DNA of 64,000 bases, from positions 352,001 through 416,000 of the forward strand of contig CP000066.1 in assembly GCA_000002445.1 (NCBI GenBank), given 5' to 3'. The notes below the pieces were generated by a model. The model saw nothing but the letters and a program-made list of their open reading frames with translations. It had not been told where the DNA came from and ran no database searches. The stretch's first letter is position 1, and every line of letters begins with the position of its first letter. Shown here in pieces: positions 15,079 through 49,722 of the stretch. Position numbers and translations under genes: made by a program. The DNA is from Trypanosoma brucei (taxonomy: Eukaryota).

Positions 15079-15099
15079 TATATATATATATATATATAT
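15079..15099. repeat. (TA)n microsatellite abutting the AAA ATPase start codon
   Basis: Read directly in the sequence. Confidence 0.95.
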
Positions 15100-17542: not shown

Positions 17543-17859
17543 TACCGCCGAGCGACTCCACAAACTATGTGCACCCTGCGTTCCCCGTGACATAACCTGA
17601 AACATTTTTGTCAAGCTATTCTCCTCATCAACATGTTCTCCGCGTTCCCACAACATCTGCGCACTTTAAACAGTTTTGGACGGAACGGTTACAACACGTG
17701 TCCCGCCTCGCTGCCTTCGGTTACCATGTGGAGATGCCATCATGTAAACTGTTGGGAGGTGACGAAGTTGTCCCTGCAACGGGCACTCTTAATTGTATCA
17801 TTTGCCCCTTTCACAATTATGTCAGTCAATCACTTCCTTAATGAGTTCTTGTGTGCGCA

Positions 17860-17886
17860 TGTGTGTGTGTGTGTGTGTGTGTGTGT
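17860..17886. repeat. (GT)n microsatellite (mirror copy as (CA)n at 49505-49534)
   Basis: Read directly in the sequence. Confidence 0.95.
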
Positions 17887-18123
17887 CTTTCCATCATTTC
17901 TTCTTTTGGGCGATTGATTGCATGTGATGTATCGCGACGCTTGTAGCGGCCAATGTTTCCATTGCGTCAAGCGCCAGCGTATGTGTGTCCCACCCACCTT
18001 TTCCTAATTTCTCTGTGAGTTGGAAGTGTTTAAGTAAGTAATCGTAAGCCATTTACTTTCTTCAAACACAACAAGTGGTACTGAAGGTGTGAAACTTACC
18101 ACAAGTACGAAGACACTGATTAG

Positions 18124-19329
18124 GTGCGTGCAGATTCATACGTTGTGGCAATGCCGTGTGCCACTAAAGGAGAGGCTTCACCTCCCGTAACCACACCAGT
18201 GGGACGTGACGGGTGCCTTTGTGTCGTTACATGGCAGACTGCAGGGCGCATGTCACTACAAACATGTGCTTTGGAATCTGCTGCAGATGCACTAGTTTTC
18301 TTACGCAACAACTTACCGGGAATTGCACTGTGTGGTTTATGGGTGGACATGCAGAAGTGCAGTGAAGAAGAGCATCGGCAAGTTTTACAGCTGCTTTACC
18401 CAAACATGCAGCCGAGTCACGTGGAGGCTGTGCTTGCAAATGATATGTACGACGTGGTGGAGTTGCAACCTACGGAAGGTGAGTATGTTGTTGGCTGCCT
18501 TTCGTGTTCCCCGAGCCACGGCGGACCGTTTCCTGCTGCAACCGCTATGTCGCGCACTGAGTTAGGTTGCGAGGAAGGGGTTTTGTGCTCGTTTGTGTGT
18601 AGTGAGCGTGTACTACTGACGCTGCATACAGCACCGTTTGCCGGTCTCGCGGAGTTATTTCGTCATGTTCTGAGGGACAACTCCCAGTGGCCCATGAGTA
18701 TGTCGGCTATCCTTTGCACCCTCGTGTGTTACACATGCGAATTGAGCCTTCCCGATCCTACGGCCCTAATTGGGGAGGTGGATTGTATCGACGAGATGAT
18801 GCTGTTGGTTGCCCCGGGAAAGCGCGACCAAACGGATATGCTCCGACGGGTAGCTTTACTTCGCCGCCACCTTTCGGCATTGAACCGAAAGCTACAAGAA
18901 AAAGCGAAACTTATCTCAGAGATGACTGGTCCTGCAATGCGTACGACTTTTGTGTCACGTGAGTTGCATTTGGGTTATATGTATCGGGAGGCGCTTGAAG
19001 GACTTTCGCAAGTGCTGTCACGCCTCGAGTGTGCACAAGATACACTGGATCATGCAAACCTCAACTTTATGTACGCCATAACAATGCGGATGTCGCAGAC
19101 GTCAGCGGGTTGCGATCGCCAAGTTATGATTGTTAACAAGATTGCCACTATTTGCCTTCCAGCCATTCTGGTGGCCTCCTTGTTTGGAATGAACTGCAAG
19201 GTGCAGTGGGTGGCAGACGACTGCGACAGTCTTTACCCATTTTGGACTATTGTTGCTCTCATGATAGTTTGGATGGCTGCTCTCCTGTTTCAACCGGTCC
19301 GTGACCTCATCAGGGAAAAGGGTGGATAA
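18124..19329 (+). CDS. CorA/MRS2-family magnesium transporter-like protein (GMN motif), paralog 1. Start possibly at M10 (18151).
   Basis: C-terminal ...SLFGMNCKVQW... is followed by a hydrophobic transmembrane helix, the signature [FY]GMN plus two C-terminal TM helices. The N-terminal 176 aa are identical to the right-arm paralog and the C-terminal part is about 50% identical. Confidence 0.7.
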   Translation: MRADSYVVAMPCATKGEASPPVTTPVGRDGCLCVVTWQTAGRMSLQTCALESAADALVFLRNNLPGIALCGLWVDMQKCSEEEHRQVLQLLYPNMQPSHVEAVLANDMYDVVELQPTEGEYVVGCLSCSPSHGGPFPAATAMSRTELGCEEGVLCSFVCSERVLLTLHTAPFAGLAELFRHVLRDNSQWPMSMSAILCTLVCYTCELSLPDPTALIGEVDCIDEMMLLVAPGKRDQTDMLRRVALLRRHLSALNRKLQEKAKLISEMTGPAMRTTFVSRELHLGYMYREALEGLSQVLSRLECAQDTLDHANLNFMYAITMRMSQTSAGCDRQVMIVNKIATICLPAILVASLFGMNCKVQWVADDCDSLYPFWTIVALMIVWMAALLFQPVRDLIREKGG

Positions 19330-20818
19330 GCCACGAGGGTATCGTTGTTTTGTGCTTGAGGTTGAGATTAAAAACTCATCATTGAACGTTCTAACGGGTG
19401 TCGATCCTCGACTTGGGTGTAGTTTGCGATGTGTCCGGTGTGCCCCAAAGGGCGAGTGTGTAAAGTCACTTCATCATTTTGTTAATCTGTTGCTGTCCCC
19501 ATTTGTATGATCCGCACTTCCATGTGGTTGGCGGAGTTTCCCTAGCGCAGAAAGCGCTTAATTGAGTACCTCGTCTTTTCCTAAACCTTTGAAAAGGGGG
19601 AAATTGTGACCATATACGGAAAGCATACATTTAAAAGAAGGTGGAAAATGCGTCTTTCGGTCGAAAAGGAAAGTGTTGGGGGGCGAAGGTATGTTATTGT
19701 TCAGTGGAAGACCCTTCATCCTACCGGCGGGCTCACAAGTGATCGGCACCACCGCTACCACAAATGAAACCACTGATGACTATAACGTTTCACTCTTGTC
19801 GTACGAAATGTCTTGACGAAACTTATACTTCGTTTGATTCTGAATTATTTATTCCTTCCTTCACACCCTATCATTCGTCGCCCCTTATTTACTCTTTCCG
19901 TTGGAACAATGATGTGAATCTATCTGTGCAAATGACACCTCTAGTCTGAAACACAACATGACGCGAGCACAAATACAAGTTATCCCTGGCTGAGTAATCC
20001 AACTCCATTCTCTGTCCCTTCCCTAAGCAATTCATATCGAGTTCTCTACTGAGAGAATTCGCATATATTTTTTTTATTTCCCATGTAACAAGGTGTCTGA
20101 CGCCTTATTATATGCTGCTCAAGGCTGGTGTTACTCGTGAGTTTGCTCCCCGACGGCAACTTAAATTTTACCATAACACTTACGGAACTGTGTCTGTTGG
20201 TTGTTGACAGTGCCGAAGTTCAGTGCTCTTCCCTGATGAGTGTGAAGGTAAATGTCGCTACTTTCCCTCCGGTTGCTGAAACGGAGGTGCCAACGGGACT
20301 TGAGAGTGTGTTTAGATGGTTTCTTCCTTCAGTGGTGGGATACACTGCAGAGAAACTTGCAAAAAAATTTAACAGTATCTAAAACAATTTCATGACAAAG
20401 TTGACAATAAACAACTTTACGCCCATCCTTTCCCCGCCCCTGCTGGTGTTGCACGCAATGTTGTCGTTGGAGGGCTTTATGTCTTTCTGTTACAGAAGAA
20501 TGTCTCGCAACTCCTTTTCTCCACACTTCCCTGCGTATTTAATCGGGAACTAAAAGGATCACGGGGTTGCAGTAAGAGAAGACGTCGTTTCCATAAAGTT
20601 TGGGTCGAGGCGAGAGCAGCAGCGACATGTGGAGACAGAGTTTAAACAAATAGCACCAAATTATTAATTCTTCACTAAAGTCTTTAAAGTTCACTTACAG
20701 GTTTATACAAAGTGAAGAAATATGGCACGAAATAAAAAGCCATTGGACCACCATCTAGACAAACGGATTACCTGTAGGTTTTTGGAGGGATATTAACGCG
20801 TTCCGTTTCCCGCTTTCG

Positions 20819-21349
20819 TTGCCGCACATAATATGCCGGAAAAAATCCATGTTGAGTTACCACCGGATGGTCTTCTTTGCATATTTTCTCTCTTTAATTT
20901 TTGAGTCTTCTCCTTCTCCTCCTCCAATCACAAGCCTTCGTCTTTTTGAAAGTGCATCTCAGTGTGTAGGCAAAATGAGTTATATAATTGGCCATGTAAT
21001 GAAAAAGACGGTTTTTGTGCTAGTGTTTGCGATTGTTGCGGCATCCAAAAGTGATGAAGATGATAATGATGATGATTTTCGAGTACCCACATGTGAGCAA
21101 TTACTCCCACGGTGGCGGGACGATTTGATGTGCTGTGCTGAGAAGGTACGGGATAAAAACACTTGGTGTTGTGTCAACAACGTGTCAAAAAGCATGTGGA
21201 CTGCTTTAGAGGAATGTGCCAAACAATCCCCGCGTGATTTTACCACATACCCGTGTAGTTGTCTGTCGCAACAAATGATAGAAGCAAATGGTTGGACTGA
21301 AGAAAAGGAAAGAAGCATTAAGAATGCGGAGGAACGGGAATCGCAATAA
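20819..21349 (+). CDS. small Cys-rich acidic secreted protein. The likely true start is at 20975 (MSYIIG) or 20999 (MKKTVFVLVFAIVAAS signal peptide), giving a mature protein of about 100 aa with a poly-Asp/Glu tract.
   Basis: Conserved ORF in both inverted-repeat arms (46622-47161 on -). Signal-peptide-like hydrophobic stretch, 10 Cys, a DEDDNDDD tract. An upstream (GA)n(TA)n microsatellite follows the usual intergenic pattern. Confidence 0.45.
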   Translation: MPHIICRKKSMLSYHRMVFFAYFLSLIFESSPSPPPITSLRLFESASQCVGKMSYIIGHVMKKTVFVLVFAIVAASKSDEDDNDDDFRVPTCEQLLPRWRDDLMCCAEKVRDKNTWCCVNNVSKSMWTALEECAKQSPRDFTTYPCSCLSQQMIEANGWTEEKERSIKNAEERESQ

Positions 21350-22531
21350 AACATCAAGTGAGCTGGCAGCTGAAGAGGAAATTGTGGATTGAAAAGCGGA
21401 ACAAGCAATAAAGGAAGTTAGCTCGGCAACCTAGTTAGGCACACGTTTGGGAGTAAGACCAACCTCATGAAAAGAATAATCCTTACAGTAAGCAAATGAG
21501 AAGATGAAACAGATACATCAGTATCAAAAAAGGAGAGTCTGTCCCCCCCTCCCTTTACATTTGGTGACACCACTTCTCTTTATTGCTTTTACTTCATTAC
21601 TTATTTTATTTTAAGGTTTATCCATTGTGGGTTGTTTCTAGTTGCTATTTCACGATTTGTTTCATGCCAAACATGTACATGTCCCTTCGATAAGAAACAA
21701 GGTTTTCGAGTTGCAATGTTCATGTTGTTGCATGTGTATAAAGTTGGGCACTATTCCCTTTTATCCGCATCCGCAACTTCATCACTGTTTTGTGCAAGGA
21801 GGGGAGGGGAGGTATTTTAGCAAATTCTTTTCAGAATAATGTGAAACATAATTGGGAAACGCAATAAAACAAGGTAATGATGGGACGATGTGATGTGATG
21901 TTTTTGTTGTTGTTTTTGTTATTCTCGATTGTAGTTGATACCGCTAATTTTTTTTAACTTTTCAATACGGGGATGCATACATTTGATCGCTTTGCCTCCT
22001 TGATGTTGTGTACCTCTTATGAAATTATGTGTAGCATATCCTCCATGGGCTTTAATTCTTTTGATAGTAGTTGGTTGTCCCCCATTTGTAAAGTGTTGTC
22101 CACAAGATTTCTCCACAATAGATTTTGATCTGCTTGAAAACACGTTTTTTTTTATATTATGGTACAATAATATGTCACTCTTACAAACGTCACCTACAAA
22201 CGCATTACCATTATTAGTTGTTGAATATGTTTGCCCATTAGGCGAAGTGCTGGAGGTGCAAATGATAGTGAATAAACGGATTGAATTTTTGCACATTTAT
22301 GCTGAAGTAGATTATATTATGCGTAAATGAGTGTGTTTGGTTATTGGTGATTCCCCTTGTGAGGGGAATGGAAAAATTACGCTTAAGTTACATGCGGTGC
22401 TGGTGGAAACTTTAGTTTCCGTAATAAAGGCCACCATCGGTAACTTGGCTTACTTTCTTCTTTGTATTATGAAATTGGTGTGTCTGTGCTTTTACTTTTG
22501 ATTTTTCGAAAAAGGACAAAAGAAATAAAGG

Positions 22532-23629
22532 ATGCGGATATATTTCTCATTTATTGTCGTATTGTTGACTGGGACAGTGGAAAGTTCAAAAGCAGGAAAG
22601 AAGGGTTCACAAATATTGAATGAAAACGAGTTTAAAACATTATGTGGATTTGTCAATCTGACGTTTGAAATACAGAAATTGGCGAGTGAAGGAAAGCCAA
22701 CACTTGGAGGATTGAAACCTGAAAGTGTTAACGAGTCCGTGAATACCATTTTGTACGGCAACAAAGGCAGCACCGAAATTGGTTTCGAAGGCGAAAACGA
22801 CAGGAAAGATTACTGCGGGGACAGGCAAAATCGAGCCCACAAATATGCGGGGAAAAGCTTAATAAAGGATATTTTGTGTCTATGTAAACCCCACAGAAGG
22901 CAGGGCCAAAACGGGGCTGGTGCAGAAGATCTGTGTTTTAGCGGTAACAAGTGGTACAAGGGCGGTGAGGTGTGGAGCAATAAAGAGCAAGCTAAGCAGC
23001 ATTGGGAGAAAATAAGGTTGCATTGTAACCAACTTCCGAAACGGGAGCAACATATACAAAATCAATTATACCACTTAAAGGAAAAAGTTCAAGCAGTACT
23101 GAGAACAGCGACAGAAAAGAAGGGAAGGGAATCAGATCAAAACATACGACTCGGGGGTCATCAGGCAACAGAAGTGAAGCAATGCTCAGCAACCACTGGA
23201 AAGGGTAATTCGGTGTGTTTGATGTATAACATCACTTCCGGCACACTCACCAACCATAGCATCCCCTGGTTAAAGCATCTTGAAGAACTTGCCGAGAAAA
23301 TACCGAATGATACACGAACCAATTTGGGCACGAGTGAAAACGACGTCGAAACCGTTCCAAATGGAGTTGGAGATGCCGCACCTTCAACGGACCGAAAGAT
23401 TAACGAAGGCATTCGCACTAATGATGATAATAACAATAATAATGATAATGATAATATTAATTACAAGCACAATGATGGTAATAACACTGAATATAATCTA
23501 GAAGATCCACTAATGAATGAAAGCGGAACTAATACATCCGCAGAACCACAAACACGACCACTTTGGTCAGTAAATGGGAACCCTAACCCTAACCCTTTAA
23601 AAATACTTCTTTTACTGCTCTTAAATTAA
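22532..23629 (+). CDS. surface protein A: 365-aa putative GPI-anchored, N-glycosylated secreted glycoprotein (N-terminal signal peptide, C-terminal LKILLLLLLN hydrophobic tail), left-arm copy
   Basis: Signal peptide MRIYFSFIVVLLTGTVES. About 8 NxS/T sequons. Conserved Cys including a DILCLCKP motif. Asn/Asp-rich low-complexity region (NDDNNNNNDNDN). Short hydrophobic C-terminus typical of a GPI addition signal. Distantly related to gene B (shared NxxEFKTLCG and LCLC motifs). Confidence 0.7.
   Translation: MRIYFSFIVVLLTGTVESSKAGKKGSQILNENEFKTLCGFVNLTFEIQKLASEGKPTLGGLKPESVNESVNTILYGNKGSTEIGFEGENDRKDYCGDRQNRAHKYAGKSLIKDILCLCKPHRRQGQNGAGAEDLCFSGNKWYKGGEVWSNKEQAKQHWEKIRLHCNQLPKREQHIQNQLYHLKEKVQAVLRTATEKKGRESDQNIRLGGHQATEVKQCSATTGKGNSVCLMYNITSGTLTNHSIPWLKHLEELAEKIPNDTRTNLGTSENDVETVPNGVGDAAPSTDRKINEGIRTNDDNNNNNDNDNINYKHNDGNNTEYNLEDPLMNESGTNTSAEPQTRPLWSVNGNPNPNPLKILLLLLLN
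23583..23599. repeat. short telomere-like repeat (CCCTAA)x2.5 inside the 3' end of gene A (mirror copy TTAGGG x2.5 at 44378-44394)
   Basis: aaccctaaccctaaccc read directly. It encodes the NPNPNP just before the GPI signal. Confidence 0.6.
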
Positions 23630-26600
23630 AAATATATGCATATAAATATTAAAACTATTATATTTATGATGAGATACATGGGTTTTTTTAATACCGTCGG
23701 AAAAATTAATCAAATGTTTCTGTTTCAATATGTGCTTCCCTTTGGATGGCATAAAATATAATGGGGGGTGTGCAAGGTGTAATGTAAACATTTTTAGTTT
23801 TCGCTGTGGTGGCAGATGCTTACATATATTAAAATGATTTTATCGTTTCAGTGCCTAAGCCGTTTCTGCTTTGATGTCGGTGAGTGCCGAGCGAATTCGC
23901 GGATGATGTGCTGTACGAGTGGGGGATTACGTAAATAATTGATTTTTCGACTTATGTAAAGAAACGTATTTCGACATGCTTAAGATATTTTAAGTTAGGG
24001 AAATGTATACCCTTAAATGCATGCGGAGAGCGGCGGCAGGTGCTGTCGTCCACATTTTCCACAACGCTGAATACGACAGTACAGGCGAAAAAATTGCGAC
24101 AACATTCGTGAAGTGGGGGACTTGTATGTAAAGGTCCGAGAATTAAAAAAGTGTGGGTAAGCTTATGCAGATTAGGTCCCGAGTCCCCGTGACTCCTTTT
24201 CTATCAAATCTAGTGCATGCTGCGAGGACACCTTTTTGAGGTACTCCGACGCTGCGTTTTTAACGTCATTAATATCATTTGGGAATTTGAGCAATGAGGT
24301 AAGCGGTTGAGTTAGTGGGTAAGAATATTGCTTACTGGTAAGTGTGTTCTTAGGTTCAACTTACCAAATCAGGTAGATGTTGCCGATGTGTATGCCGGAG
24401 GGAGGTGGAAATGCAAGAGAGGGAGCCACTTCATTATTACATTTTTCGCGGATATGCAAGACGGTCACCTGCAAAGAATTTTGCTACGCGACTGAAAACA
24501 GAGAAAACAGAGTGTGTATAGGCTGAAGTATCAAAAAGGGGAGGCAAGTTCCCAGGGGGTGTTCTAGTATAAATGGCCCGAAAATTGAGAAAAAAAAGAT
24601 CGGGTACTGATTATCCAGTTAATGGCCTAAGACTGCTTGTGGTTGAGGTGTCTGTGTTTTCCCTAATTCATTCTCCTCTGGAGATGCAAATAAATTCATG
24701 TTTGGTGGTGTACTATATGACCGAAAGTTGTGTTCTTTGAGAATAATAAGGCGGTTGTATGCGGCTTCGTTTATGAGGAGCCGTAACGATTTGGGGCGAC
24801 TCTCCGCGATGGAGCGATGAGGGAGTTCACCGCCACCCGAGGGGGTTTTGGTCGATTTTGGAGATTTTGTAACATTGGGGCAGGGGCGAGAGAGTACTGA
24901 GGATATGTTAAGTATCCTTTCTCATAATTTGACTTAAAAGCGAAGTCTTACGTGGGGAGGAACGAGAGGTTACGTTGAACTTGTGCGTGCTTCCAGTTAG
25001 TATTCTGCTGGCTGTGTGGATGCACAACTTGAACCTGACTTACTTTTACCATATGCGGGAGACGGCGTATTCATGTCGACGAAATGTGGTGGTATCTGGG
25101 TATTGATCATATTGCCCGTTTGGCGCATCTACGATAACAATAGTGATGAGAGAGGTGTGCTGATTGCGTACGATGGTGCAACGTTATTTCAGGGGCAGTA
25201 TCGAAGTTGTATAATTTCATGTGCAGGCGAGTAGGATTGCTGGGAAGGAGAGTTTGTGTATGGTGCGTGTGCGAGAGTAAGGGCTATACGGCACCATAGC
25301 GAACTAAAGTGACTGAACTTATTTTCTCATTTGGTGCAAGGTCGCAGCGCAAACCAGCCACGAGTGGCACTCCCATAATAGGCGGCTCGTCGATACGTCA
25401 TGTGTATACTTCCAGAAAAAGTGCTCGTGCGGAGTAAGCAAAAACGTCATGTATATGGTTAGTGTTCACACGTTGGGAGCACAGTGTTTTATACCGAGAA
25501 GATATGGGTAATATTGCATATACAGTGGGTTTTTTTTAGCAAAGTAAGGAGTAACTTAGCAAACGGGTTGTGTGAAATGGCGTCTTTTTTCGGTGATGCC
25601 ACAATCGTCTGTGATGGCGAGGGAGGGAGGGTTGACATCAACGTAACCAATGTGAGTGTCTTCTGGACTGATGTGAGGAGCAGTGGAGTTCTGCTATTTG
25701 GAAGGATAACGAATGACAGGTATATTAACGTTCACAGAGGTAGACTAGATGCCAGGCTGCTTCTATTTCTCGTTCCTTCCTCGTGGTGACCGCGCCGCCG
25801 TTCTGCCCACAAATATGCATTACGTGTAAGTGGTGGTAAAGAAAGGGGGGATTGTTTACCTATCCCTCATGAAAGGACGTGTTAAAGGCGAAATGGCTTC
25901 TCAAAAGTGCAGAGAATGTTTTCTAGGTGGAGCACCGTCTTTCTGAGAACCGCGAGCAAGGGCTCACCCAGTTTGGTCAAGTGTTGTCTGCTTCATTTTC
26001 TATGCTTTGGTGTACCTCGCCTTTACAGTTTGAGGTGAAAGGGGAACATAATTAACTTAACCGCCCCCGCTCATTTGCACTCTGACTTCCGCAGTATGTG
26101 TTGTTTCTGCGTGGGCGTAGAGGAGCTGTTAGGCGAGTGGTGCCTTCACATTACGGAGGGATGAAATAACGAATGACAGACTGCAGTTTGTTTTTAACGT
26201 AACATGCATCTTTCTTTAGGTAGCGGACGTTGAACCCGCAGAAAGTGTGTTATTGTGACGTTAGAGGAAGAGGCAAGTCAAAAGATAAGCGGATACTAAC
26301 TAAACACTTTCGAGGCCGCCTGCATGGATAAATGGATAAATCAAGAGAAACAACAGATAAAACACGAGAATTACCTTTTATCGCGCGTCGCTCCTGCAGT
26401 AGGACGACCTTCTTCAGAATTCCTGGGCACAACTGCTGTCAGTACGTCCAGCAGGCTAGCTCGGGAAGAAAACTTAACCATAGTCTTCAACATACGCGCA
26501 TAAGTTCCTTTTGATTAAACAACCGGGTGGGATGGTTTTCCATCGTTTCCAGTCTACCAAGGGCAAATAGAAAAGCGGCAGCACCGCATTCATAACGCGA

Positions 26601-27404
26601 TTCATGCAGTGAGGACTCCTTCCTCGCCATCCGCGGCATGCCTTTTATACAATAAGGATCGCGCGACTCCGTGCTGCCTCCGCAGCCAAATAATTTTATC
26701 GTCGGCACCGTTTTGGTTCTACAGGGAAGGAGTGCCAGGCTTCAAACAAGTGCGGACATTTTGTGTTTGGGAAAGTGCTTTGTACCCCCGTCCCACACCA
26801 CCACCACTTTATGATTGCAGCAGAAAACATTCTTGAGGGGCCCGCCCACCTAGTGTCGAAAGTTGAGGGAACAGCACTTTCTTTACTCCTTGTAACGGTT
26901 GCAATTCTGAATTTCCTTCCGGTAAGTGACCTAATGGTAACGGGCAAGGTGCTGTCGCTTTCCTTGCTGCACTGGAAGGTGTCGAAAAGGGGGTGTCCTT
27001 CCTGTTGTCGGCACAGAAGTGGCATGGGTGAAGGTGGAAACAAAATGTGGGGAGAAGTATCAAACTTCAGTCAAAGGGCCTGTGCGTTGTTTGCATTGGT
27101 GGTACACGATGCCTGGAAGGTAAAAAAAAAGCGGCACATCGCGATTGGGAGCACTACTTGACCATTTGCGGTGCGGCGTGTGTAACACTAAAATATAAAA
27201 CAGTGATCGTGGGTAAGCAACAAACGACTGAACAGATTTATTATCTGGCCTCGCCTACTTGTATGTTGTGGTCCCTCGCTTCTTTTCCAATGTTCTTACC
27301 CACTCATCACTTCATATCATGCGTGGCTGAGTGTGAATTTCCCTACGTTCTATTGATACTGTCTTTTTCATTCTCATGTAGTCGCGTGTGCGGGACGCGC
27401 AAAC

Positions 27405-42162: not shown

Positions 42163-43263
42163 TTAATTTTTGGCATTGCCAATTTTCCTGTTTGACTCTT
42201 CAAACTCTTTTTGTAGCTTTTCAATGGCATCTGCGAGCGTTCTCTTATCATTCTCGTAGTCTTTCAGATCCCTCATTTCGTTGAAAACTTTTAACAACTC
42301 CCTCATCCACGGTATATTCTTAATATCTCTGTTCCTACCCCTAACCACGTAGCGCACACGGTGACCTGCGAGACTGTGTGCCATGATCGGATAGCGCCAA
42401 AAGCTGAATCCAACCCCACCCCCCAAAGTATATGCCGTCCCTCTGCATTCATCTTCACCGCCGTACGTAGCCTTGCGAAAGTTGTCCACCAGTTTGTTAA
42501 ACCCTTCTTGTGGGCCTTCCATACTTGAGCACTGCTTTTTAAGGAAGTGCCATCTTCCAGTTGCATTCTTATTTGTTTCCCACATACCTTCATTTTGATT
42601 CCTAACACACTCTTTGCAGCAAAGATGGGCTTTCCATCCCAAATTCATACGAGGCGCGCACAAACACAACAAATCCCTACTCAATGATACGGACGCTTTA
42701 AGCTTTTGTGAACGTGAGAGTTGCTGCTCACATACCTGTCTCCTGTCGGAACTGCGTGCTTTAATTTCTTGTGGTCGATATGGAACACCATACAGCGCGC
42801 GATTAATACCTTTTTCGAGATCACTTGCTTTCAAAACCCATCTCCGATTTTTGGTTATATTTTGGAATATCTGCGCAACGGAAAGAACCTTTTTTCTAAT
42901 CTCCACCACTTCACGTTCGGACAATCCTCCTACCGAAAGTAGGGTTGTATTTCCCCTAGTTGCCAATTCTTTTTTCGATTCATTCCAAAACACTTTGTGG
43001 AGTGCACAGTTTCTTTTCCCCGCGCCTTCGCAAGTTTTGTTCAAATCCCTGTCTCCACTCATTTCCAAATACATTGCTCCAATTCGAGCCGCCCCTTTAG
43101 TGATTTCCTGTGCTTCTTTCATCTTTCCAAGTGCTGCTTCTGCCAAATTTATCATGCCACACAATGTCTTAAACTCATTCCCGTTAACCAGCCATTCCGA
43201 ACCCGAGACAGTTGCCGGGAATACCAGCGCAAGCAAAACAGTGCAAAGATTTATAGCGCGCAT
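42163..43263 (-). CDS. surface/secreted protein B, copy 2 (366 aa). Identical to copy 1 except for a ~90-aa mosaic patch and a 5-aa patch near the mature N-terminus.
   Basis: Same frame, length and termini as copy 1. The differences are confined to residues ~210-300 and ~22-27. Confidence 0.7.
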   Translation of the reverse strand: MRAINLCTVLLALVFPATVSGSEWLVNGNEFKTLCGMINLAEAALGKMKEAQEITKGAARIGAMYLEMSGDRDLNKTCEGAGKRNCALHKVFWNESKKELATRGNTTLLSVGGLSEREVVEIRKKVLSVAQIFQNITKNRRWVLKASDLEKGINRALYGVPYRPQEIKARSSDRRQVCEQQLSRSQKLKASVSLSRDLLCLCAPRMNLGWKAHLCCKECVRNQNEGMWETNKNATGRWHFLKKQCSSMEGPQEGFNKLVDNFRKATYGGEDECRGTAYTLGGGVGFSFWRYPIMAHSLAGHRVRYVVRGRNRDIKNIPWMRELLKVFNEMRDLKDYENDKRTLADAIEKLQKEFEESNRKIGNAKN

Positions 43264-44342
43264 TCTCTCCCTTCACTTCAATCAACAACTTCACCTCTTA
43301 AAAATACACAAGAAGATCATATAAAAATGCGAATGCATACCCCACATGCACCTTTGAATAAGTTATAGGAGTTGATAGAAAGGTAAATATACTACAAGTC
43401 AAATACCAACATTTGATGGATGTGCTTCTAAAAGTAAAAAAAGACTTAAGTAGTGTTAGATGGCAGTTTACAAAAGTGGAGGTAAGTGTCCTTGGTGCCA
43501 AATCGACGCATGCTCTGGCATTTCATTTGGACCTTGATTTCTGCTGTAGGGAGGTTGCATCACTTCCGTAAATCTTGGGCTTATCCACTGTAGAAATAAC
43601 CTATGACACTTTATACTTCCGAAGAATTAACTTTTGTTTGTTTTTTCCCTTTATGCTAGTTGTTCCAGCCATTGCTCGACGTCTTCTATAAACTGAAGTT
43701 TACAGTTGGTGGAGTCGAGTCATTAAAAGGTTATTGAGATGTAATAATACTCTGTAGCGTGAAGCATCATCATTGAATATGAAATGAACTTCCCCAACAA
43801 CATCGACCATCTGACGCAACGCCACACACTTCACTCGAGTGCACCCCTTCACCCTCCACTTACTATCATAACGGGCGCACAAAAACAAAGACTGCAACCA
43901 AAGCCTGTCAGAACCATGATTTACGAAAATCATAAAACAGAAACTTCCACGGATAAGTTAGCATACGGCATTTACGTCTGAGCCGTCTGCCTTCGAAACT
44001 GAATATCAGCTTCCGATCTCACACAAAAACTTGGCATAAGTTTCCTGTACCAGCAGGAGCCACACAAAAATATAACAAATGCACATAAACAAAACCTCCT
44101 TCCTCCCCCTCCAGCTTTTTATTATAAATCACAATCATGTTAATATATGTAAGTATCTGCCACCACAGCGAAAACTAAAAATGTTTACATTACACCTCGC
44201 ACACCCCCCATTATATTTTATGCCATCCAAAGGGAAGCACATATTGAAACAGAAACATTTGATTAATTTTTCCGACGGTATTAAAAAAACCCATGTATCT
44301 TATCATAAATATAATAGTTTTAATATTTATATGCATATATTT

Positions 44343-45440
44343 TTAATTTAAGAGCAGTAAAAGAAGTATTTTTAAAGGGTTAGGGTTAGGGTTCCCATTT
44401 ACTGACCAAAGTGGTCGTGTTTGTGGTTCTGCGGATGTATTAGTTCCGCTTTCATTCATTAGTGGATCTTCTAGATTATATTCAGTGTTATTACCATCAT
44501 TGTGCTTGTAATTAATATTATCATTATCATTATTATTGTTATTATCATCATTAGTGCGAATGCCTTCGTTAATCTTTCGGTCCGTTGAAGGTGCGGCATC
44601 TCCAACTCCATTTGGAACGGTTTCGACGTCGTTTTCACTCGTGCCCAAATTGGTTCGTGTATCATTCGGTATTTTCTCGGCAAGTTCTTCAAGATGCTTT
44701 AACCAGGGGATGCTATGGTTGGTGAGTGTGCCGGAAGTGATGTTATACATCAAACACACCGAATTACCCTTTCCAGTGGTTGCTGAGCATTGCTTCACTT
44801 CTGTTGCCTGATGACCCCCGAGTCGTATGTTTTGATCTGATTCCCTTCCCTTCTTTTCTGTCGCTGTTCTCAGTACTGCTTGAACTTTTTCCTTTAAGTG
44901 GTATAATTGATTTTGTATATGTTGCTCCCGTTTCGGAAGTTGGTTACAATGCAACCTTATTTTCTCCCAATGCTGCTTAGCTTGCTCTTTATTGCTCCAC
45001 ACCTCACCGCCCTTGTACCACTTGTTACCGCTAAAACACAGATCTTCTGCACCAGCCCCGTTTTGGCCCTGCCTTCTGTGGGGTTTACATAGACACAAAA
45101 TATCCTTTATTAAGCTTTTCCCCGCATATTTGTGGGCTCGATTTTGCCTGTCCCCGCAGTAATCTTTCCTGTCGTTTTCGCCTTCGAAACCAATTTCGGT
45201 GCTGCCTTTGTTGCCGTACAAAATGGTATTCACGGACTCGTTAACACTTTCAGGTTTCAATCCTCCAAGTGTTGGCTTTCCTTCACTCGCCAATTTCTGT
45301 ATTTCAAACGTCAGATTGACAAATCCACATAATGTTTTAAACTCGTTTTCATTCAATATTTGTGAACCCTTCTTTCCTGCTTTTGAACTTTCCACTGTCC
45401 CAGTCAACAATACGACAATAAATGAGAAATATATCCGCAT
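44343..45440 (-). CDS. surface protein A, right-arm copy. The 365-aa protein is 100% identical to 22532-23629.
   Basis: Identical translation in the ORF track. Confidence 0.7.
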   Translation of the reverse strand: MRIYFSFIVVLLTGTVESSKAGKKGSQILNENEFKTLCGFVNLTFEIQKLASEGKPTLGGLKPESVNESVNTILYGNKGSTEIGFEGENDRKDYCGDRQNRAHKYAGKSLIKDILCLCKPHRRQGQNGAGAEDLCFSGNKWYKGGEVWSNKEQAKQHWEKIRLHCNQLPKREQHIQNQLYHLKEKVQAVLRTATEKKGRESDQNIRLGGHQATEVKQCSATTGKGNSVCLMYNITSGTLTNHSIPWLKHLEELAEKIPNDTRTNLGTSENDVETVPNGVGDAAPSTDRKINEGIRTNDDNNNNNDNDNINYKHNDGNNTEYNLEDPLMNESGTNTSAEPQTRPLWSVNGNPNPNPLKILLLLLLN

Positions 45441-46621
45441 CCTTTATTTCTTTTGTCCTTTTTCGAAAAATCAAAAGTAAAAGCACAGACACACCAATTT
45501 CATAATACAAAGAAGAAAGTAAGCCAAGTTACCGATGGTGGCCTTTATTACGGAAACTAAAGTTTCCACCAGCACCGCATGTAACTTAAGCGTAATTTTT
45601 CCATTCCCCTCACAAGGGGAATCACCAATAACCAAACACACTCATTTACGCATAATATAATCTACTTCAGCATAAATGTGCAAAAATTCAATCCGTTTAT
45701 TCACTATCATTTGCACCTCCAGCACTTCGCCTAATGGGCAAACATATTCAACAACTAATAATGGTAATGCGTTTGTAGGTGACGTTTGTAAGAGTGACAT
45801 ATTATTGTACCATAATATAAAAAAAACGTGTTTTCAAGCAGATCAAAATCTATTGTGGAGAAATCTTGTGGACAACACTTTACAAATGGGGGACAACCAA
45901 CTACTATCAAAAGAATTAAAGCCCATGGAGGATATGCTACACATAATTTCATAAGAGGTACACAACATCAAGGAGGCAAAGCGATCAAATGTATGCATCC
46001 CCGTATTGAAAAGTTAAAAAAAATTAGCGGTATCAACTACAATCGAGAATAACAAAAACAACAACAAAAACATCACATCACATCGTCCCATCATTACCTT
46101 GTTTTATTGCGTTTCCCAATTATGTTTCACATTATTCTGAAAAGAATTTGCTAAAATACCTCCCCTCCCCTCCTTGCACAAAACAGTGATGAAGTTGCGG
46201 ATGCGGATAAAAGGGAATAGTGCCCAACTTTATACACATGCAACAACATGAACATTGCAACTCGAAAACCTTGTTTCTTATCGAAGGGACATGTACATGT
46301 TTGGCATGAAACAAATCGTGAAATAGCAACTAGAAACAACCCACAATGGATAAACCTTAAAATAAAATAAGTAATGAAGTAAAAGCAATAAAGAGAAGTG
46401 GTGTCACCAAATGTAAAGGGAGGGGGGGACAGACTCTCCTTTTTTGATACTGATGTATCTGTTTCATCTTCTCATTTGCTTACTGTAAGGATTATTCTTT
46501 TCATGAGGTTGGTCTTACTCCCAAACGTGTGCCTAACTAGGTTGCCGAGCTAACTTCCTTTATTGCTTGTTCCGCTTTTCAATCCACAATTTCCTCTTCA
46601 GCTGCCAGCTCACTTGATGTT

Positions 46622-47161
46622 TTATTGCGATTCCCGTTCCTCCGCATTCTTAATGCTTCTTTCCTTTTCTTCAGTCCAACCATTTGCTTCTATCATTTGT
46701 TGCGACAGACAACTACACGGGTATGTGGTAAAATCACGCGGGGATTGTTTGGCACATTCCTCTAAAGCAGTCCACATGCTTTTTGACACGTTGTTGACAC
46801 AACACCAAGTGTTTTTATCCCGTACCTTCTCAGCACAGCACATCAAATCGTCCCGCCACCGTGGGAGTAATTGCTCACATGTGGGTACTCGAAAATCATC
46901 ATCATCATCATCATTATCATCTTCATCACTTTTGGATGCCGCAACAATCGCAAACACTAGCACAAAAACCGTCTTTTTCATTACATGGCCAATTATATAA
47001 CTCATTTTGCCTACACACTGAGATGCACTTTCAAAAAGACGAAGGCTTGTGATTGGAGGAGGAGGAGGAGAAGACTCAAAAATTAAAGAGAGAAAATATG
47101 CAAAGAAGACCATCCGGTGGTAACTCAACATGGATTTTTTCCGGCATATTATGTGCGGCAA
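46622..47161 (-). CDS. small Cys-rich acidic secreted protein, right-arm copy. Its poly-Asp tract is 3 residues longer than the left copy and it reads PPPP where the left copy reads PSPPP.
   Basis: Mirror ORF. It differs only by a GAT-repeat length change and one substitution. Confidence 0.45.
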   Translation of the reverse strand: MPHIICRKKSMLSYHRMVFFAYFLSLIFESSPPPPPITSLRLFESASQCVGKMSYIIGHVMKKTVFVLVFAIVAASKSDEDDNDDDDDDFRVPTCEQLLPRWRDDLMCCAEKVRDKNTWCCVNNVSKSMWTALEECAKQSPRDFTTYPCSCLSQQMIEANGWTEEKERSIKNAEERESQ

Positions 47162-47957
47162 CTCTCCCTCTCTCTCTCTCTGTCATATATATATAAATCC
47201 ACGGAGTTCCCTTCAAGCCAACAAACTTGCCAAATGGAAGGTTGCCATCAAAGTGAAGAGATGAGTGAGTATCAAAAAAGAAAAAAGAAAATACAACTTG
47301 AAAGGAAGCAAACGCTCCTCTTGAAGGGAAAATCGGGGAAGATAAAAAAGAACTCACAGGAACCAACAGGTAACTCTCGGACTCCGAATACATTTAAGTA
47401 GAATTAATAACCATCGTAAAGTGTGACCGCGAGAAAATCAGCGCATAACAAATATTACTTGTGCTCAACGGAAAATATTCTTTCGGCATAACAGTTCGCT
47501 AGTATTTTAAAGCGAAGATGGAGGAGGTAAAAGAAAATTGTTCGATCAATGTATTTCGTGTTATTGTCGTGACTCGAACGAATCTTCGTCTTGGATGCAG
47601 CAAAGTGTTAGCTTCAACAGACCCAAAACCAACTAACTCACATGCGCCGAGGTGAAAGTCGTATGAGTGTGAACCGACAACGGTGGAATACAATTAAAAA
47701 AAAAGTGGATTTGCAACTGCCTTAACAACAACAAAAAAAAGATGTTTTGTAAACAAAATACCTGAGGCAGTTAACCCTCTTATGGGCCGTCAATTAAATA
47801 CCTACTTTCAACTACCACTTTTTAATTACAACAAAGCAAATTCGCCCAAACTAAATATTAGTAATGCACGAATATTCCAGAACGGAATCCGTTTCCTCCA
47901 CCCCCCCCCCTGGCTGTGGAAACTTCTCTCGCACTTAAAAACTTTTGCACTACTTGT

Positions 47958-49247
47958 TCACTCATATGGAGCAATCGGATCATTTTTGAGACCCCGCTGC
48001 GCTCTACGGAAGAGCGGCGTTAAGCAAATGCCCGCCCACACAACAAAAACAGCGCAGATTGTCCAAAATGGTATGAGTGTGCTGCCCTCGCCAGTCATAA
48101 ACGGAACTTTTAAGTTCATACCGAACAAAGATACGACAAGGTTGATGGGAAGAGAAACAGCAGCAACACTGTTCAGAATATTCATCTTGAAGTCGAGTCC
48201 TGCGGACGCCTGCGACATGCGCATAGAAACACCCGTAATGAAGTTCAGGTTTGCATGATTTAACATATCACGAGCATCATCCAGCTTCTCTGAAACCTTT
48301 TGGACTCTTGCCAGTATTTCCTTGTAGGCCACAGCACTCGGGTGACTCTTAGAAACGAACGTTAAACGCATTGCTGGTGAAATAAGCTGGTGAATCAGTT
48401 TTTCCTTCAGGAACAATGCTGTTCGAAAACTAGAAATACGGCGCCGTAACAACGCTACACGACGGAGGAGGTCTGTCTGATCCTGCTCACCAGGCGAAAT
48501 CAGAAAGACCATTTCATTAATATCACCAACCTCACTCAGCAGCGAGGCAGGTGCTGGAAAGGAGGCCTCACAAGTGAAACACACGAGAGTACATAGGGCA
48601 TCTGTTCCCATAGCAACAGGAACAAAAGAAGAACGATGTGACGAAGGATCCTTCACAATGCCAACAACCGAATCCTCGCATTCACGGCTATGTCTCTCCG
48701 CTTCACTTCCATTACATTTGAGAACATGACGAAATAACTCCGCGAGACCGGCAAACGGTGCTGTATGCAGCGTCAGTAGTACACGCTCACTACACACAAA
48801 CGAGCACAAAACCCCTTCCTCGCAACCTAACTCAGTGCGCGACATAGCGGTTGCAGCAGGAAACGGTCCGCCGTGGCTCGGGGAACACGAAAGGCAGCCA
48901 ACAACATACTCACCTTCCGTAGGTTGCAACTCCACCACGTCGTACATATCATTTGCAAGCACAGCCTCCACGTGACTCGGCTGCATGTTTGGGTAAAGCA
49001 GCTGTAAAACTTGCCGATGCTCTTCTTCACTGCACTTCTGCATGTCCACCCATAAACCACACAGTGCAATTCCCGGTAAGTTGTTGCGTAAGAAAACTAG
49101 TGCATCTGCAGCAGATTCCAAAGCACATGTTTGTAGTGACATGCGCCCTGCAGTCTGCCATGTAACGACACAAAGGCACCCGTCACGTCCCACTGGTGTG
49201 GTTACGGGAGGTGAAGCCTCTCCTTTAGTGGCACACGGCATTGCCAC
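47958..49247 (-). CDS. CorA/MRS2-family magnesium transporter-like protein (GMN motif), paralog 2 (429 aa)
   Basis: The N-terminal 176 aa are identical to paralog 1. The C-terminal ~250 aa are divergent but homologous. ...VVSLFGMNLKVPF... is followed by a TM helix. Confidence 0.7.
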   Translation of the reverse strand: MAMPCATKGEASPPVTTPVGRDGCLCVVTWQTAGRMSLQTCALESAADALVFLRNNLPGIALCGLWVDMQKCSEEEHRQVLQLLYPNMQPSHVEAVLANDMYDVVELQPTEGEYVVGCLSCSPSHGGPFPAATAMSRTELGCEEGVLCSFVCSERVLLTLHTAPFAGLAELFRHVLKCNGSEAERHSRECEDSVVGIVKDPSSHRSSFVPVAMGTDALCTLVCFTCEASFPAPASLLSEVGDINEMVFLISPGEQDQTDLLRRVALLRRRISSFRTALFLKEKLIHQLISPAMRLTFVSKSHPSAVAYKEILARVQKVSEKLDDARDMLNHANLNFITGVSMRMSQASAGLDFKMNILNSVAAVSLPINLVVSLFGMNLKVPFMTGEGSTLIPFWTICAVFVVWAGICLTPLFRRAQRGLKNDPIAPYE

Positions 49248-49505
49248 AACGTATGAATCTGCACGTACCTAATCAGTGTCTTCGTACTTGTGGTAAGTTT
49301 CACACCTTCAGTACCACTTGTTGTGTTTGAAGAAAGTAAATGGCTTACGATTACTTACTTAAACACTTCCAACTCACAGAGAAATTAGGAAAAGGTGGGC
49401 GGGACACACATACGCTGGCGCTTGACGCAATGGAAACATTGGCCGCTACAAGCGTCGCGATACATCACATGCAATCAATCGCCCAAAAGAAGAAATGATG
49501 GAAAG

Positions 49506-49536
<31 letters not shown>

Positions 49537-49722
49537 CGCACACAAGAACTCATTGAGGAAGTGATTGACTGACATAATTGTGAAAGGGGCAAATGATACA
49601 ATTAAGAGTGCCCGTTGCAGGGACAACTTCGTCACCTCCCAACAGTTTACATGATGGCATCTCCACATGGTAACCGAAGGCAGCGAGGCGGGACACGTGT
49701 TGTAACCCTCTCACATTTACAT

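Follow-up and report, generated by a model that had tools for sequence, protein, structure and literature searches.

Organisation of the locus

We analysed a window of 64,000 bp from chromosome 3 of Trypanosoma brucei brucei TREU927 (contig CP000066.1, positions 352,001 to 416,000). It contains a convergent strand-switch region with a 'VSG/ESAG island'. Repeats were detected by a self-BLAST of the window and by a repeat search. Both returned two blocks, A and B, each present in inverted orientation on the two sides of a spacer (Table 1). Together with the DNA between the blocks, the arms measure 6153 bp (left) and 5575 bp (right). The ORFs of both arms are directed toward the centre, and the maximum of the cumulative GC skew, at about 32 kb, indicates where the transcription units converge.

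The two copies of block A align over 987 columns at 99.49% identity, with 3 substitutions and one 2-bp indel in the (TG)n microsatellite. Those of block B align over 3031 columns at 99.5% identity, with 5 substitutions and two indels of 9 bp and 1 bp. At all four block edges similarity drops sharply, from about 100% to the random level over a few bases. The middles of the arms (2.1 kb left, 1.6 kb right) can be aligned only across the 3' coding halves of the CorA genes (18711-19250 against the right arm), where nucleotide identity is 60% over 550 bp; their remaining DNA is unrelated.

An earlier note on this DNA had described base-for-base identical arms placed symmetrically around the meeting point of two converging gene blocks. 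The inverted repeat is real and its coordinates had been given correctly to within 10 bp. The ORFs and GC skew also bear out the inward direction of the genes and a convergence point within the spacer. The identity was slightly overstated, since the blocks are about 99.5% identical, with 8 substitutions and some indels. The symmetry does not hold: in the TREU927 window the convergence point is about 8 kb away from one inner arm end and 8-12 kb away from the other, and in T. b. gambiense the spacer is about 14.2 kb, with a single 366-aa VSG-related (VR) gene. The protein that the note called 'GPI-anchored surface protein A' is a 365-aa VSG_B-domain protein, named 'VSG-related' in the databases. 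The VR pair corresponds to Tb927.3.1470/.1520; which identifier belongs to the left copy is deduced from gene order. These two genes have one common probe set in Jensen 2009 (PMC2771046), where they are bloodstream-form-enriched. In database comparison, the genes of block B are specific to T. brucei.

Table 1. Features of the inverted repeat and its spacer (positions are those of the window)
Feature	Position	Strand	Description
Left block A	17687..18671	+	464 bp upstream of CorA-L, including (TG)n microsatellite, and first 174 codons of CorA-L
CorA-L	18151..19329	+	392-aa type-1 MGT2/CorA-like Mg2+ transporter paralogue; Pfam CorA E = 5e-16; identical to TREU927 AAZ10180
Left non-homogenised middle	18672..20817	+	CorA-L 3' half and 1.5 kb of unique 3' UTR/intergenic DNA
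Left block B	20818..23839	+	Small Cys-rich ORF and VSG-related gene; 99.5% identity to 47162-44133
Small Cys-rich protein, left copy	20975..21349	+	124 aa; hydrophobic N-terminus; annotated 'T. brucei spp.-specific protein'
VR gene, left copy	22532..23629	+	365 aa; VSG_B E = 6e-31; identical to AAZ10182/AAZ10187
Spacer	23840..44132		20,293 bp; the two transcription units converge within it at about 31.9-36.1 kb
Two LRR genes in spacer	27405-28307, 29470-31920	+	
Two 366-aa VR genes in spacer	36094-37194, 42163-43263	-	On a 6.07-kb tandem duplication
Right block B	44133..47162	-	Inverted partner of left block B
VR gene, right copy	44343..45440	-	365 aa; protein identical to left copy
Small Cys-rich protein, right copy	46622..47005	-	127 aa; 3 additional Asp from the 9-bp indel
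Right non-homogenised middle	47163..48720	-	CorA-R 3' half and 0.8 kb of unique 3' UTR/intergenic DNA
CorA-R	47958..49241	-	427-aa type-2 MGT2/CorA-like paralogue; Pfam CorA E = 1e-16; identical to TREU927 AAZ10188
Right block A	48721..49707	-	CorA-R upstream region and first 174 codons; starts 16 nt past the Rce1 stop codon

Ancient CorA paralogues with homogenised 5' parts

The outermost gene of each arm encodes an MGT2/CorA-like transporter, and the GMN motif is present in CorA-L. MGT1 and MGT2 are CorA-like transporters of Leishmania. The proteins CorA-L and CorA-R are identical over their first 174 residues and only about 45% identical thereafter, so that the 'same gene trio' ascribed to both arms is correct only in part. 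The C-terminal half of CorA-L groups with a 392-aa protein of T. congolense and a 401-aa protein of T. cruzi, that of CorA-R with proteins of T. congolense (427 aa), T. cruzi (436 aa) and T. theileri (432 aa). Among these Trypanosoma sequences, identity of the C-terminal halves is 56-70% within a paralogue type and 39-49% between types. At the T. cruzi and T. theileri loci the two CorA/MGT2 genes lie in tandem, head-to-tail after an AAA-ATPase gene. Both types are present in T. congolense, and in T. brucei the second paralogue has the reverse orientation and belongs to the opposing transcription unit. CorA-L and CorA-R are ancient paralogues of which only the upstream region and the first 174 codons have been homogenised. 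What had been taken for one 6-kb inverted duplication is thus a mosaic.

Homogenisation of the CorA N-terminus occurs independently in other trypanosomes. Within a species, the N-terminal halves of the two paralogues are 100% identical in T. brucei and 99% in T. congolense; in T. theileri 355 bp are 97% identical, and in T. cruzi 344 bp are 81% identical. Its 3' limit falls at the same place in T. brucei, T. congolense and T. theileri, with T. cruzi partly homogenised, and coincides with an indel of about 30 codons between the paralogue types. Since identity in T. brucei extends through 464 bp of non-coding upstream DNA, the process acts at the DNA level and is not convergence of proteins.

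Concerted evolution of the arms

Both arms were compared in two genomes, TREU927 and T. b. gambiense DAL972. The 927 reference served to order the gambiense assembly (PMC2854126), although the arm sequences of the two differ. Both blocks have the same boundaries in the two genomes. Each site pattern gives the states of TREU927 left, TREU927 right, gambiense left and gambiense right in turn. The pattern '0011', in which the arms are alike within a genome, accounts for 33 substitutions (10 + 23) along the full length of both blocks. In the same comparison there are no sites of the orthology pattern '0101', and the pattern '0110' is represented by no substitution, only by a 2-bp microsatellite indel. 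Per roughly 4 kb, the two arms differ by 8 substitutions in TREU927 and by 17 in gambiense; between genomes the number is 43-47, alike for left-left, right-right and cross comparisons. Divergence between arms is thus 0.2-0.4% within a genome and about 1.1% between subspecies for any pairing of arms; the unique flanks of the two genomes diverge by 0.5-1.2%. The presence of 33 substitutions shared within genomes and of none following orthology indicates concerted evolution by arm-to-arm gene conversion. The repeat is older than the divergence of T. b. brucei from T. b. gambiense.

Of the two explanations that the earlier note had offered for the near-identity, ongoing homogenisation is accordingly the right one, and a very recent duplication is not. 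A single inverted duplication of the whole CorA/small protein/VR unit, too young to have diverged, would fit an identity of 99.5% over 4 kb and the restriction of the block B genes to T. brucei. It is nevertheless extremely improbable. The four repeat boundaries are the same in gambiense, and both outer junctions are found in T. equiperdum OVI. Furthermore, the 33 substitutions fixed between subspecies are common to both arms. The CorA 3' halves, only 60% identical in nucleotides, each have a different paralogue as their orthologue in T. cruzi, T. congolense and T. theileri, and the intergenic DNA in the arm middles shows no relationship.

An assembly error, in which a single locus was duplicated or mis-joined in the reference, has a negligible probability; the note too had argued against a trivial artefact. 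Repeats of this length do confuse assemblers, and the T. equiperdum OVI scaffold has an obvious scaffolding error at the repeat, yet it contains both junction types. Each arm adjoins its own unique DNA at either end and includes a distinct CorA 3' half. In TREU927 as in DAL972, the arms also have substitutions and indels of their own, and the TREU927 GenBank records have two separate VR entries (AAZ10182, AAZ10187) as well as both CorA paralogues.

The VR proteins of TREU927 are identical although the arms differ at 8 sites. Two VR sequences of strain Lister 427 differ by about 10 residues and a stop codon. Should these come from the left and right arms and not be alleles, homogenisation would be an episodic process and not a continuous one. 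The mosaicism of VR variants among strains is consistent with recurrent conversion or recombination.

Origin and maintenance of the repeat

We consider it probable that the locus is a palindrome-like inverted repeat of composite origin, with arms kept near-identical by recurrent arm-to-arm gene conversion. Conversion would proceed by intrachromosomal homologous recombination without crossover. Going by the gene order of distant outgroups, an inversion in the African-trypanosome lineage may have split the CorA paralogues apart, and block B may have originated when a segment was duplicated in inverted orientation at a 'VSG/ESAG island', a dynamic part of the genome. The cassette of small secreted protein and VR gene, which is specific to T. 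brucei, lies downstream of both paralogues, in inverted orientation. The conversion tract of block A probably ends where the indel of about 30 codons and the divergent pore-domain sequence would block heteroduplex extension; alternatively, longer tracts may be removed by selection.

The last point leads to the possible, though rather unlikely, reading that the identity of the arms is itself actively selected, for equal VR doses or a common cytoplasmic CorA N-terminal domain, with conversion as the means and selection setting the limits of the tracts. It is compatible with composite origin and conversion and differs solely in whether the identity is adaptive. Two findings argue for selection: CorA homogenisation stops at one and the same 3' limit in all four species (T. 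brucei, T. congolense, T. theileri and T. cruzi), whether the genes are tandem or inverted, and the VR proteins of TREU927 are identical although its arms are not. However, the indel at this limit would halt conversion tracts mechanically, non-coding DNA is homogenised too, and the VR C-terminus is polymorphic for a stop codon, which argues against tight constraint.

Small RNAs and DNA structure

Convergent read-through could also yield a hairpin RNA, in which sense sequence of the left arm pairs with antisense sequence of the right arm and Dicer-made siRNAs tune the VR, small-protein and CorA mRNAs. The seven long inverted repeats of Tschudi et al. 2012 act in this manner. The geometry permits this, with arms transcribed toward each other, and in T. 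brucei siRNAs are known to arise both from long inverted repeats and from convergent units (PMC3447711). The spacer genes Tb427.03.1480 and Tb427.03.1490 rise about 2-fold on loss of H3.V (PMC4721609 supplement), which indicates that termination before the spacer is partial and regulated. Nevertheless, such a function is very unlikely. The repeat is absent from the seven siRNA-producing inverted repeats, and the list of miscellaneous loci has no chromosome 3 entry (PMC3447711). A chromosome 3 convergent unit at 380.9-390.6 kb, equated with the present locus only by gene-number interpolation and counted as a unit rather than by arm, yielded 82 AGO1-bound reads compared with 372,045 for IR3. Bloodstream forms give about 2-5 small-RNA reads per million there, without a significant rise in the H3.V knockout (PMC4721609 supplement), and the VR pair is expressed in these forms. 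The published small-RNA data contain no indication of a strong siRNA hairpin locus here, and the regulatory link that the note had suggested finds no support in the few small RNAs at what is apparently the same convergent region.

A role for the DNA itself, with the arms forming a cruciform or hairpin that helps to stop Pol II or replication forks or makes a fragile site, has a probability close to nil. In many organisms, long perfect inverted repeats promote recombination. For a cruciform to be extruded or a hairpin to form during replication, however, the arms must be adjacent or within a few hundred bases of each other. Here they are 20.3 kb apart, in gambiense 14.2 kb, and on established knowledge a cruciform or hairpin across 20.3 kb is implausible. 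The arms are also broken by 1.6-2.1 kb of non-homologous DNA, the length and content of the spacer vary between subspecies, so that no fixed geometry is conserved, and its orientation is constant in the three genomes examined. Known marks of Pol II termination are general to convergent regions.

Comparison with known systems

One close parallel is with sex-chromosome palindromes. The human Y palindromes P1-P8 are reportedly kept alike by arm-to-arm gene conversion (Rozen et al. are said to have shown this in 2003), and comparable inverted repeats of the X chromosome were reportedly described by Warburton et al. in 2004 (cited in PMC3447711). Inverted arms, a unique spacer, expressed genes and a structure older than a lineage split are common to both systems, as are arms closer to each other within a genome than to their orthologues, for which the ratio of 33:0 is the defining signature of concerted evolution. 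In contrast to palindromes of 9 kb to 1.45 Mb on a non-recombining sex chromosome, the present repeat has 6-kb arms, which are a mosaic of converted and unconverted segments, and lies on an autosome-like chromosome of a diploid protist.

Near-identical long inverted repeats are already a recognised curiosity of the T. brucei genome (PMC3447711). IR1-IR7 likewise have kilobase arms at at least 99% identity, and their authors, who find this identity puzzling, suggest that it is maintained in some way (Tschudi et al. 2012, PMC3447711). The chromosome 3 repeat is not on their list. Six of the seven loci span about 3.6-12 kb in total (the end coordinate of IR2 is garbled in print), compared with 32 kb and a 20-kb spacer here (PMC3447711). 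Unlike IR1-IR7, the present arms are interrupted by non-homologous DNA and straddle a whole convergent region with expressed genes, and published counts point to very few siRNAs.

Chromosome-internal 'VSG/ESAG islands' and VR genes at strand-switch regions are described by Jackson et al. 2010 (PMC2854126) and Jensen et al. 2009 (PMC2771046), and reportedly by Marcello & Barry 2007. The present locus resembles them in having VSG_B-domain genes without 70-bp repeats, beside ESAG8-like LRR genes at a strand-switch region, with VR copy number varying between subspecies and bloodstream-form enrichment. It differs from the VR genes described there in that two local copies convert each other. Tandem arrays have been analysed for concerted evolution in trypanosomatids (PMC2854126). 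Partial-gene conversion tracts with sharp boundaries between paralogues are a common feature, but here the partners are inverted, 30 kb apart and in opposing transcription units, and the tract boundary is conserved across the genus.

Nothing that we have seen indicates that the repeat itself serves as a regulatory or structural device. Its practical effect is that T. brucei possesses two identical copies of a bloodstream-form-enriched VR gene, together with two Mg2+ transporter paralogues that have one N-terminal domain and one 5' control region in common.

Structure of the inverted repeat

Self-comparison of the window, part of chromosome 3 of T. b. brucei TREU927, recovers two pairs of inverted blocks (see table), and the coordinates and block sizes of the earlier note prove correct. 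The two copies of block A are 99.49% identical over 987 columns, with three substitutions and a 2-bp (TG)n indel. Those of block B are 99.5% identical over 3031 columns, with five substitutions, a 9-bp indel and a 1-bp indel. The arms (6153 bp on the left and 5575 bp on the right) are approximately 99.5% identical over 985 + 3022 bp, with 20,293 bp of unique spacer between them.

The block edges are abrupt at all four boundaries. Between the blocks lie 2146 bp in the left arm and 1558 bp in the right. The only alignable part of these middles is the 3' coding halves of the CorA genes (60% identity over 550 bp); the remaining 0.8-1.5 kb shows no relation between the arms. The repeat is not, as had been proposed, one continuous 6-kb duplication but a mosaic with a 1.6-2.1 kb middle that is either non-homologous or 60% identical. 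Of the five block B substitutions, three lie no more than 65 bp from the inner boundary (23774-23833/44139-44198), as expected near the edge of a conversion tract.

Coordinates of repeated features in the window and at the CorA loci of other trypanosomes
Feature	First copy	Second copy	Orientation or strand	Remarks
Block A	17687-18671	49707-48721	inverted	window self-comparison
Block B	20818-23839	47162-44133	inverted	window self-comparison
Tandem duplication	32804-37581	38872-43647	direct	period ~6068 bp, 97.6% identity
366-aa VSG_B (VR) genes in tandem units	36094-37194	42163-43263	minus	Tb927.3.1500/.1510 pair
Homogenised CorA 5' coding part, T. brucei	18151-18671	48721-49241		
CorA N-terminal tracts, T. 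cruzi (locus L005)	8020-8347	10222-10562		
CorA N-terminal tracts, T. theileri (locus L006)	7870-8224	10216-10570		

Presence of both arms

An assembly artefact, the alternative that the earlier note had raised against its own observation, is contradicted by several features. The unique DNA around the two arms differs, and so do the CorA 3' halves inside them. Both arms also occur in T. b. gambiense DAL972, with the same block boundaries as in TREU927 and with private arm differences of its own. In T. equiperdum OVI, the junctions of the repeat with Rce1 (the gene adjoining the outer edge of the right arm) and with the AAA-ATPase gene (AAA) to the left of the left arm were both found.

The OVI scaffold (CZPT02001330.1) is itself mis-joined. 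A contig carrying AAA (window 15079-17686) lies between 10-N gaps at 11094-11103 and 13716-13725 and is thus misplaced inside the right arm, adjoining Rce1. The repeat and the (TG)n microsatellite within it account for the mis-join. That it occurred exactly at the inverted repeat is a caution for assemblers.

Gene content of the locus

The left genes, transcribed rightward, encode a giant kelch protein, DnaJ, the AAA ATPase, CorA-L, a small Cys-rich ORF, a VSG-related (VR) protein and two leucine-rich repeat (LRR) proteins. The right genes, transcribed leftward, encode a kinase, a 380-aa protein, Rab3GAP, Rce1, CorA-R, the small ORF, the VR protein and two further VR proteins. The cumulative GC skew peaks at ~32 kb. 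The locus is a convergent strand-switch region with housekeeping genes on either side, and its gene content is typical of chromosome-internal VSG/ESAG islands.

The two CorA proteins of the arms (CorA-L, 392 aa, AAZ10180; CorA-R, 427 aa, AAZ10188) are identical to the TREU927 entries. Both score above the gathering threshold for PF01544 and carry the GMN motif of the pore (FGMNCKV and FGMNLKV). They fit the CorA/MGT2 family of Mg2+ transporters, and transport is their predicted function. The small Cys-rich ORF is annotated as a 'T. brucei spp.-specific protein', and database comparison gave no homologue outside T. brucei spp.

The third arm gene encodes a 365-aa protein identical to TREU927 AAZ10182 (= AAZ10187). 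Since all three arm proteins compared with database entries match TREU927 exactly, the window belongs to chromosome 3 of that strain. PF13206 (VSG_B) is found with E = 6e-31 in the arm VR genes and 1e-62 to 2e-67 in the spacer VR genes. The earlier label 'GPI-anchored surface protein A' finds no clear support: the database name is 'VSG-related' and the stop codon is polymorphic. A GPI-anchored protein would have a signal peptide at its N-terminus and a GPI-attachment signal at its C-terminus. The N-terminus is hydrophobic; the C-terminal hydrophobic tail has only ~9 residues (LKILLLLLL) in the 365-aa form. Internal strand-switch regions are typical sites of VR genes, and we have used the criterion of Jensen et al. 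2009 (an internal strand-switch site without upstream 70-bp repeat arrays; PMC2771046). Both the arm and the spacer genes fit the VR class: they include a VSG_B domain, are located in an internal strand-switch region and have no 70-bp arrays (Tandem Repeats Finder identified no arrays at 17000-50500). The same study lists the spacer VR genes as Tb927.3.1500 and.1510 and reports that the identical pair of the arms, Tb927.3.1470/Tb927.3.1520, represented by one probe set, is 4.3-fold up in cultured bloodstream forms.

The spacer VR genes lie in a tandem direct duplication (see table). T. b. gambiense has a single copy, with 98% identity to copy a and 87% to copy b. Within these otherwise near-identical units, a patch of ~300 bp (42395-42694 versus 36326-36625) in the VR coding region (about aa 215-300) is only 72% identical. 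This suggests either a mosaic left by conversion from a different VR/VSG donor or very rapid evolution of the patch. No structured-RNA gene and no tRNA emerged, at the convergence point or elsewhere, when the entire window was scanned with Rfam and for tRNAs. Two parts of the spacer (23840-27400 and 32000-36000) have neither an ORF of at least 150 aa nor an Rfam/tRNA match.

The CorA paralogues and the age of the repeat

In T. cruzi YC6 and T. theileri, DnaJ, AAA and two CorA genes (CorA-1 and CorA-2) follow one another in that order on one strand. In T. brucei the second paralogue lies inverted, a derived arrangement that probably arose through an inversion. A search of the 10 kb that follow the T. 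cruzi CorA pair found neither Rce1 nor Rab3GAP.

Among the Trypanosoma sequences, the CorA C-terminal halves form two old types, with 56-70% identity within a type and 39-49% between types. One includes T. brucei left, T. congolense (392 aa), T. cruzi (401 aa), T. grayi and T. vivax, and the other T. brucei right, T. congolense (427 aa), T. cruzi (436 aa), T. theileri and T. melophagium. Unlike these, the N-terminal halves group by species. Within a species they are 100% (T. brucei) or 99% (T. congolense) identical, with tracts of 355 bp at 97% in T. theileri and 344 bp at 81% in T. cruzi. Whichever species is considered, the tract stops after the motif 'GLAEL', immediately ahead of an indel of ~30 residues that separates the types. 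This homogenisation is found in each Trypanosoma species examined, in tandem and inverted arrangements alike. In T. brucei the identity reaches through 464 bp of non-coding upstream DNA; the homogenisation is therefore at the DNA level and is not protein convergence. From these alignments, we interpret block A as a gene-conversion tract between ancient paralogues. A less probable reading is that conversion has actively preserved the identical N-terminal domain throughout the genus because the two proteins would need a regulatory or oligomerisation domain in common.

The N-terminal half of T. brucei has 39% identity to each T. cruzi paralogue, a comparison that favours neither direction for the block A conversion. 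The right outer edge of the repeat (49707-49725) lies 16 nt past the Rce1 stop codon, and the left edge 145 nt past that of AAA. Nearly all of the Rce1 3' UTR must therefore be repeat sequence in common with the AAA-CorA intergenic region, a hint that block A spread into the right arm.

All genes of block B are T. brucei-specific. The block probably arose when a segment was duplicated in inverted orientation inside a VSG island that is itself dynamic. A very recent duplication, one of two explanations proposed earlier for the similarity of the arms, does not agree with the two old types of CorA C-terminal half or with the presence of the repeat in T. b. gambiense. Such a recent segmental duplication would show continuous homology across the unit and be absent from sister lineages; the arm middles and the gambiense repeat contradict both expectations.

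Concerted evolution of the arms

The alignment comprised both arms of TREU927 and both of DAL972; the test thus covers two genomes. (Combining the right arm of OVI with the left arm of T. equiperdum IVM-t1 was uninformative because the strains belong to different haplotype groups.) Thirty-three substitutions, 10 in block A and 23 in block B, are common to both arms of each genome and differ between the genomes (pattern 0011, in the order TREU927 left, TREU927 right, gambiense left, gambiense right). They are spread along both blocks. The orthologous pattern (0101) does not occur (0 substitutions). Within a genome the arms differ by 8 (TREU927) or 17 (DAL972) substitutions per ~4 kb, and the four between-genome arm comparisons, orthologous or not, all give 43-47. 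This corresponds to an arm divergence of 0.2-0.4% within a genome versus about 1.1% between genomes; unique flanking DNA diverges by 0.5-1.2% between TREU927 and DAL972.

The repeat is older than the split of the lineages: its block edges match in T. b. gambiense and its outer junctions in T. equiperdum OVI. With boundaries that match between the subspecies, it is implausible that each acquired its own duplication. The identity of the arms is best explained by gene conversion from arm to arm, repeated since the subspecies split, and of the two explanations proposed earlier, ongoing sequence homogenisation is the right one (33 arm-shared versus 0 orthologous substitutions). On the sequence comparisons, we regard the repeat as old, composite and maintained by gene conversion.

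The VR genes of the arms also vary among strains. A stop-codon polymorphism (23627-23629/44343-45440) gives 365 aa in both TREU927 arms, 427 'VSG 1559' and EATRO1125, and a read-through form of 433-437 aa in both gambiense arms, T. equiperdum IVM-t1 and 427 'VSG 1316'. A cluster of six SNPs (RRQGQN versus KKPGKD, aa 122-127) reassorts among strains, and Lister 427 has two clearly different VR versions, which are either arms or alleles. This reassortment and the two 427 versions fit episodic conversion or recombination.

Cruciforms, hairpin RNA and transcription termination

Cruciform extrusion requires closely spaced arms. The arms are ~20 kb apart in the window and 14.2 kb apart in T. b. gambiense, and are interrupted by non-homologous DNA. 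The DNA cruciform or hairpin suggested in the earlier note is therefore unlikely.

Alternatively, the arms might form a hairpin RNA that feeds RNAi, as is the case for the seven long inverted repeats described by Tschudi et al. 2012, a group marked by AGO1-bound small RNAs of 22-25 nt from arms and spacer. The arms resemble those repeats in being inverted and near-identical over at least about 400 bp. The chromosome 3 repeat is absent from both the inverted-repeat table and the miscellaneous list of that study (PMC3447711). CTU5, a convergent unit at 380.9-390.6 kb of chromosome 3, gave 82 AGO1-bound reads versus 372,045 for IR3 (PMC3447711). In Reynolds et al. 2016 (PMC4721609), small RNAs from the convergent region at 381,684-389,146 amount to 1.7-4.7 RPM, a level that an H3.V knockout does not alter significantly. 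We infer that these regions correspond to the convergent region of the window, over which the counts were taken. The match was made by gene-number interpolation (Tb927.3.1480/.1490 versus Tb927.3.2500-2580 at 617-670 kb).

In the same study, the LRR genes of the spacer, Tb427.03.1480 and.1490, lie no more than 10 kb from H3.V and base J and are derepressed 2.2-fold and 1.8-fold, respectively, in the H3.V knockout (PMC4721609). This derepression suggests that attenuation of Pol II has already set in near the inner left-arm end. The small-RNA and derepression data fit ordinary convergent-region biology, and nothing in them indicates a regulatory role for the repeat as such. The proposed link with regulated expression and termination therefore finds no support.

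A stage-specific switch, in which a read-through hairpin silences the arm genes, seems to us very improbable. It would require that, in some life-cycle stages or conditions, the H3.V/base J termination barrier before the spacer weakens, allowing Pol II to cross the convergence point and generate long dsRNA for RNAi. The VR gene, the small secreted protein and both Mg2+ transporter paralogues would then be targeted together, and arm identity would be kept because the hairpin requires it. Such a switch would act in stages outside those sampled by the cited small-RNA studies, for example stumpy, metacyclic or tsetse forms.

Comparison with other repeats and significance

A literature search using the gene IDs retrieved only the microarray paper (PMC2771046), and no published description of the chromosome 3 repeat was found. 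Overall, the observation in the earlier note is real. Its interpretation was partly right: homogenisation stands and the recent duplication does not, and no evidence was found for a cruciform, for regulation by hairpin RNA or for a special link with termination.

The locus shows the defining features tested of sex-chromosome palindromes, whose arms are kept alike by arm-to-arm conversion. Long near-identical inverted repeats are a noted curiosity of T. brucei; the chromosome 3 repeat belongs with them and lengthens the short list of large examples. Compared with those listed, it is larger in span, interrupted and apparently siRNA-poor. It straddles a complete transcription-termination region and includes expressed parasite-specific surface-protein genes. 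Current understanding of trypanosome gene regulation is unchanged by the finding.

For annotators, the MGT2/CorA genes call for caution because they are chimeric, with a common N-terminal half and ancient, distinct pore halves. The repeat shows opposing polycistronic units evolving in concert at their ends, in a clean and countable case. In addition, the members of the local VR pair appear to convert each other, an exception to the published picture (Jackson et al.) of chromosome-internal VSG islands as exempt from gene conversion, which therefore needs qualifying.
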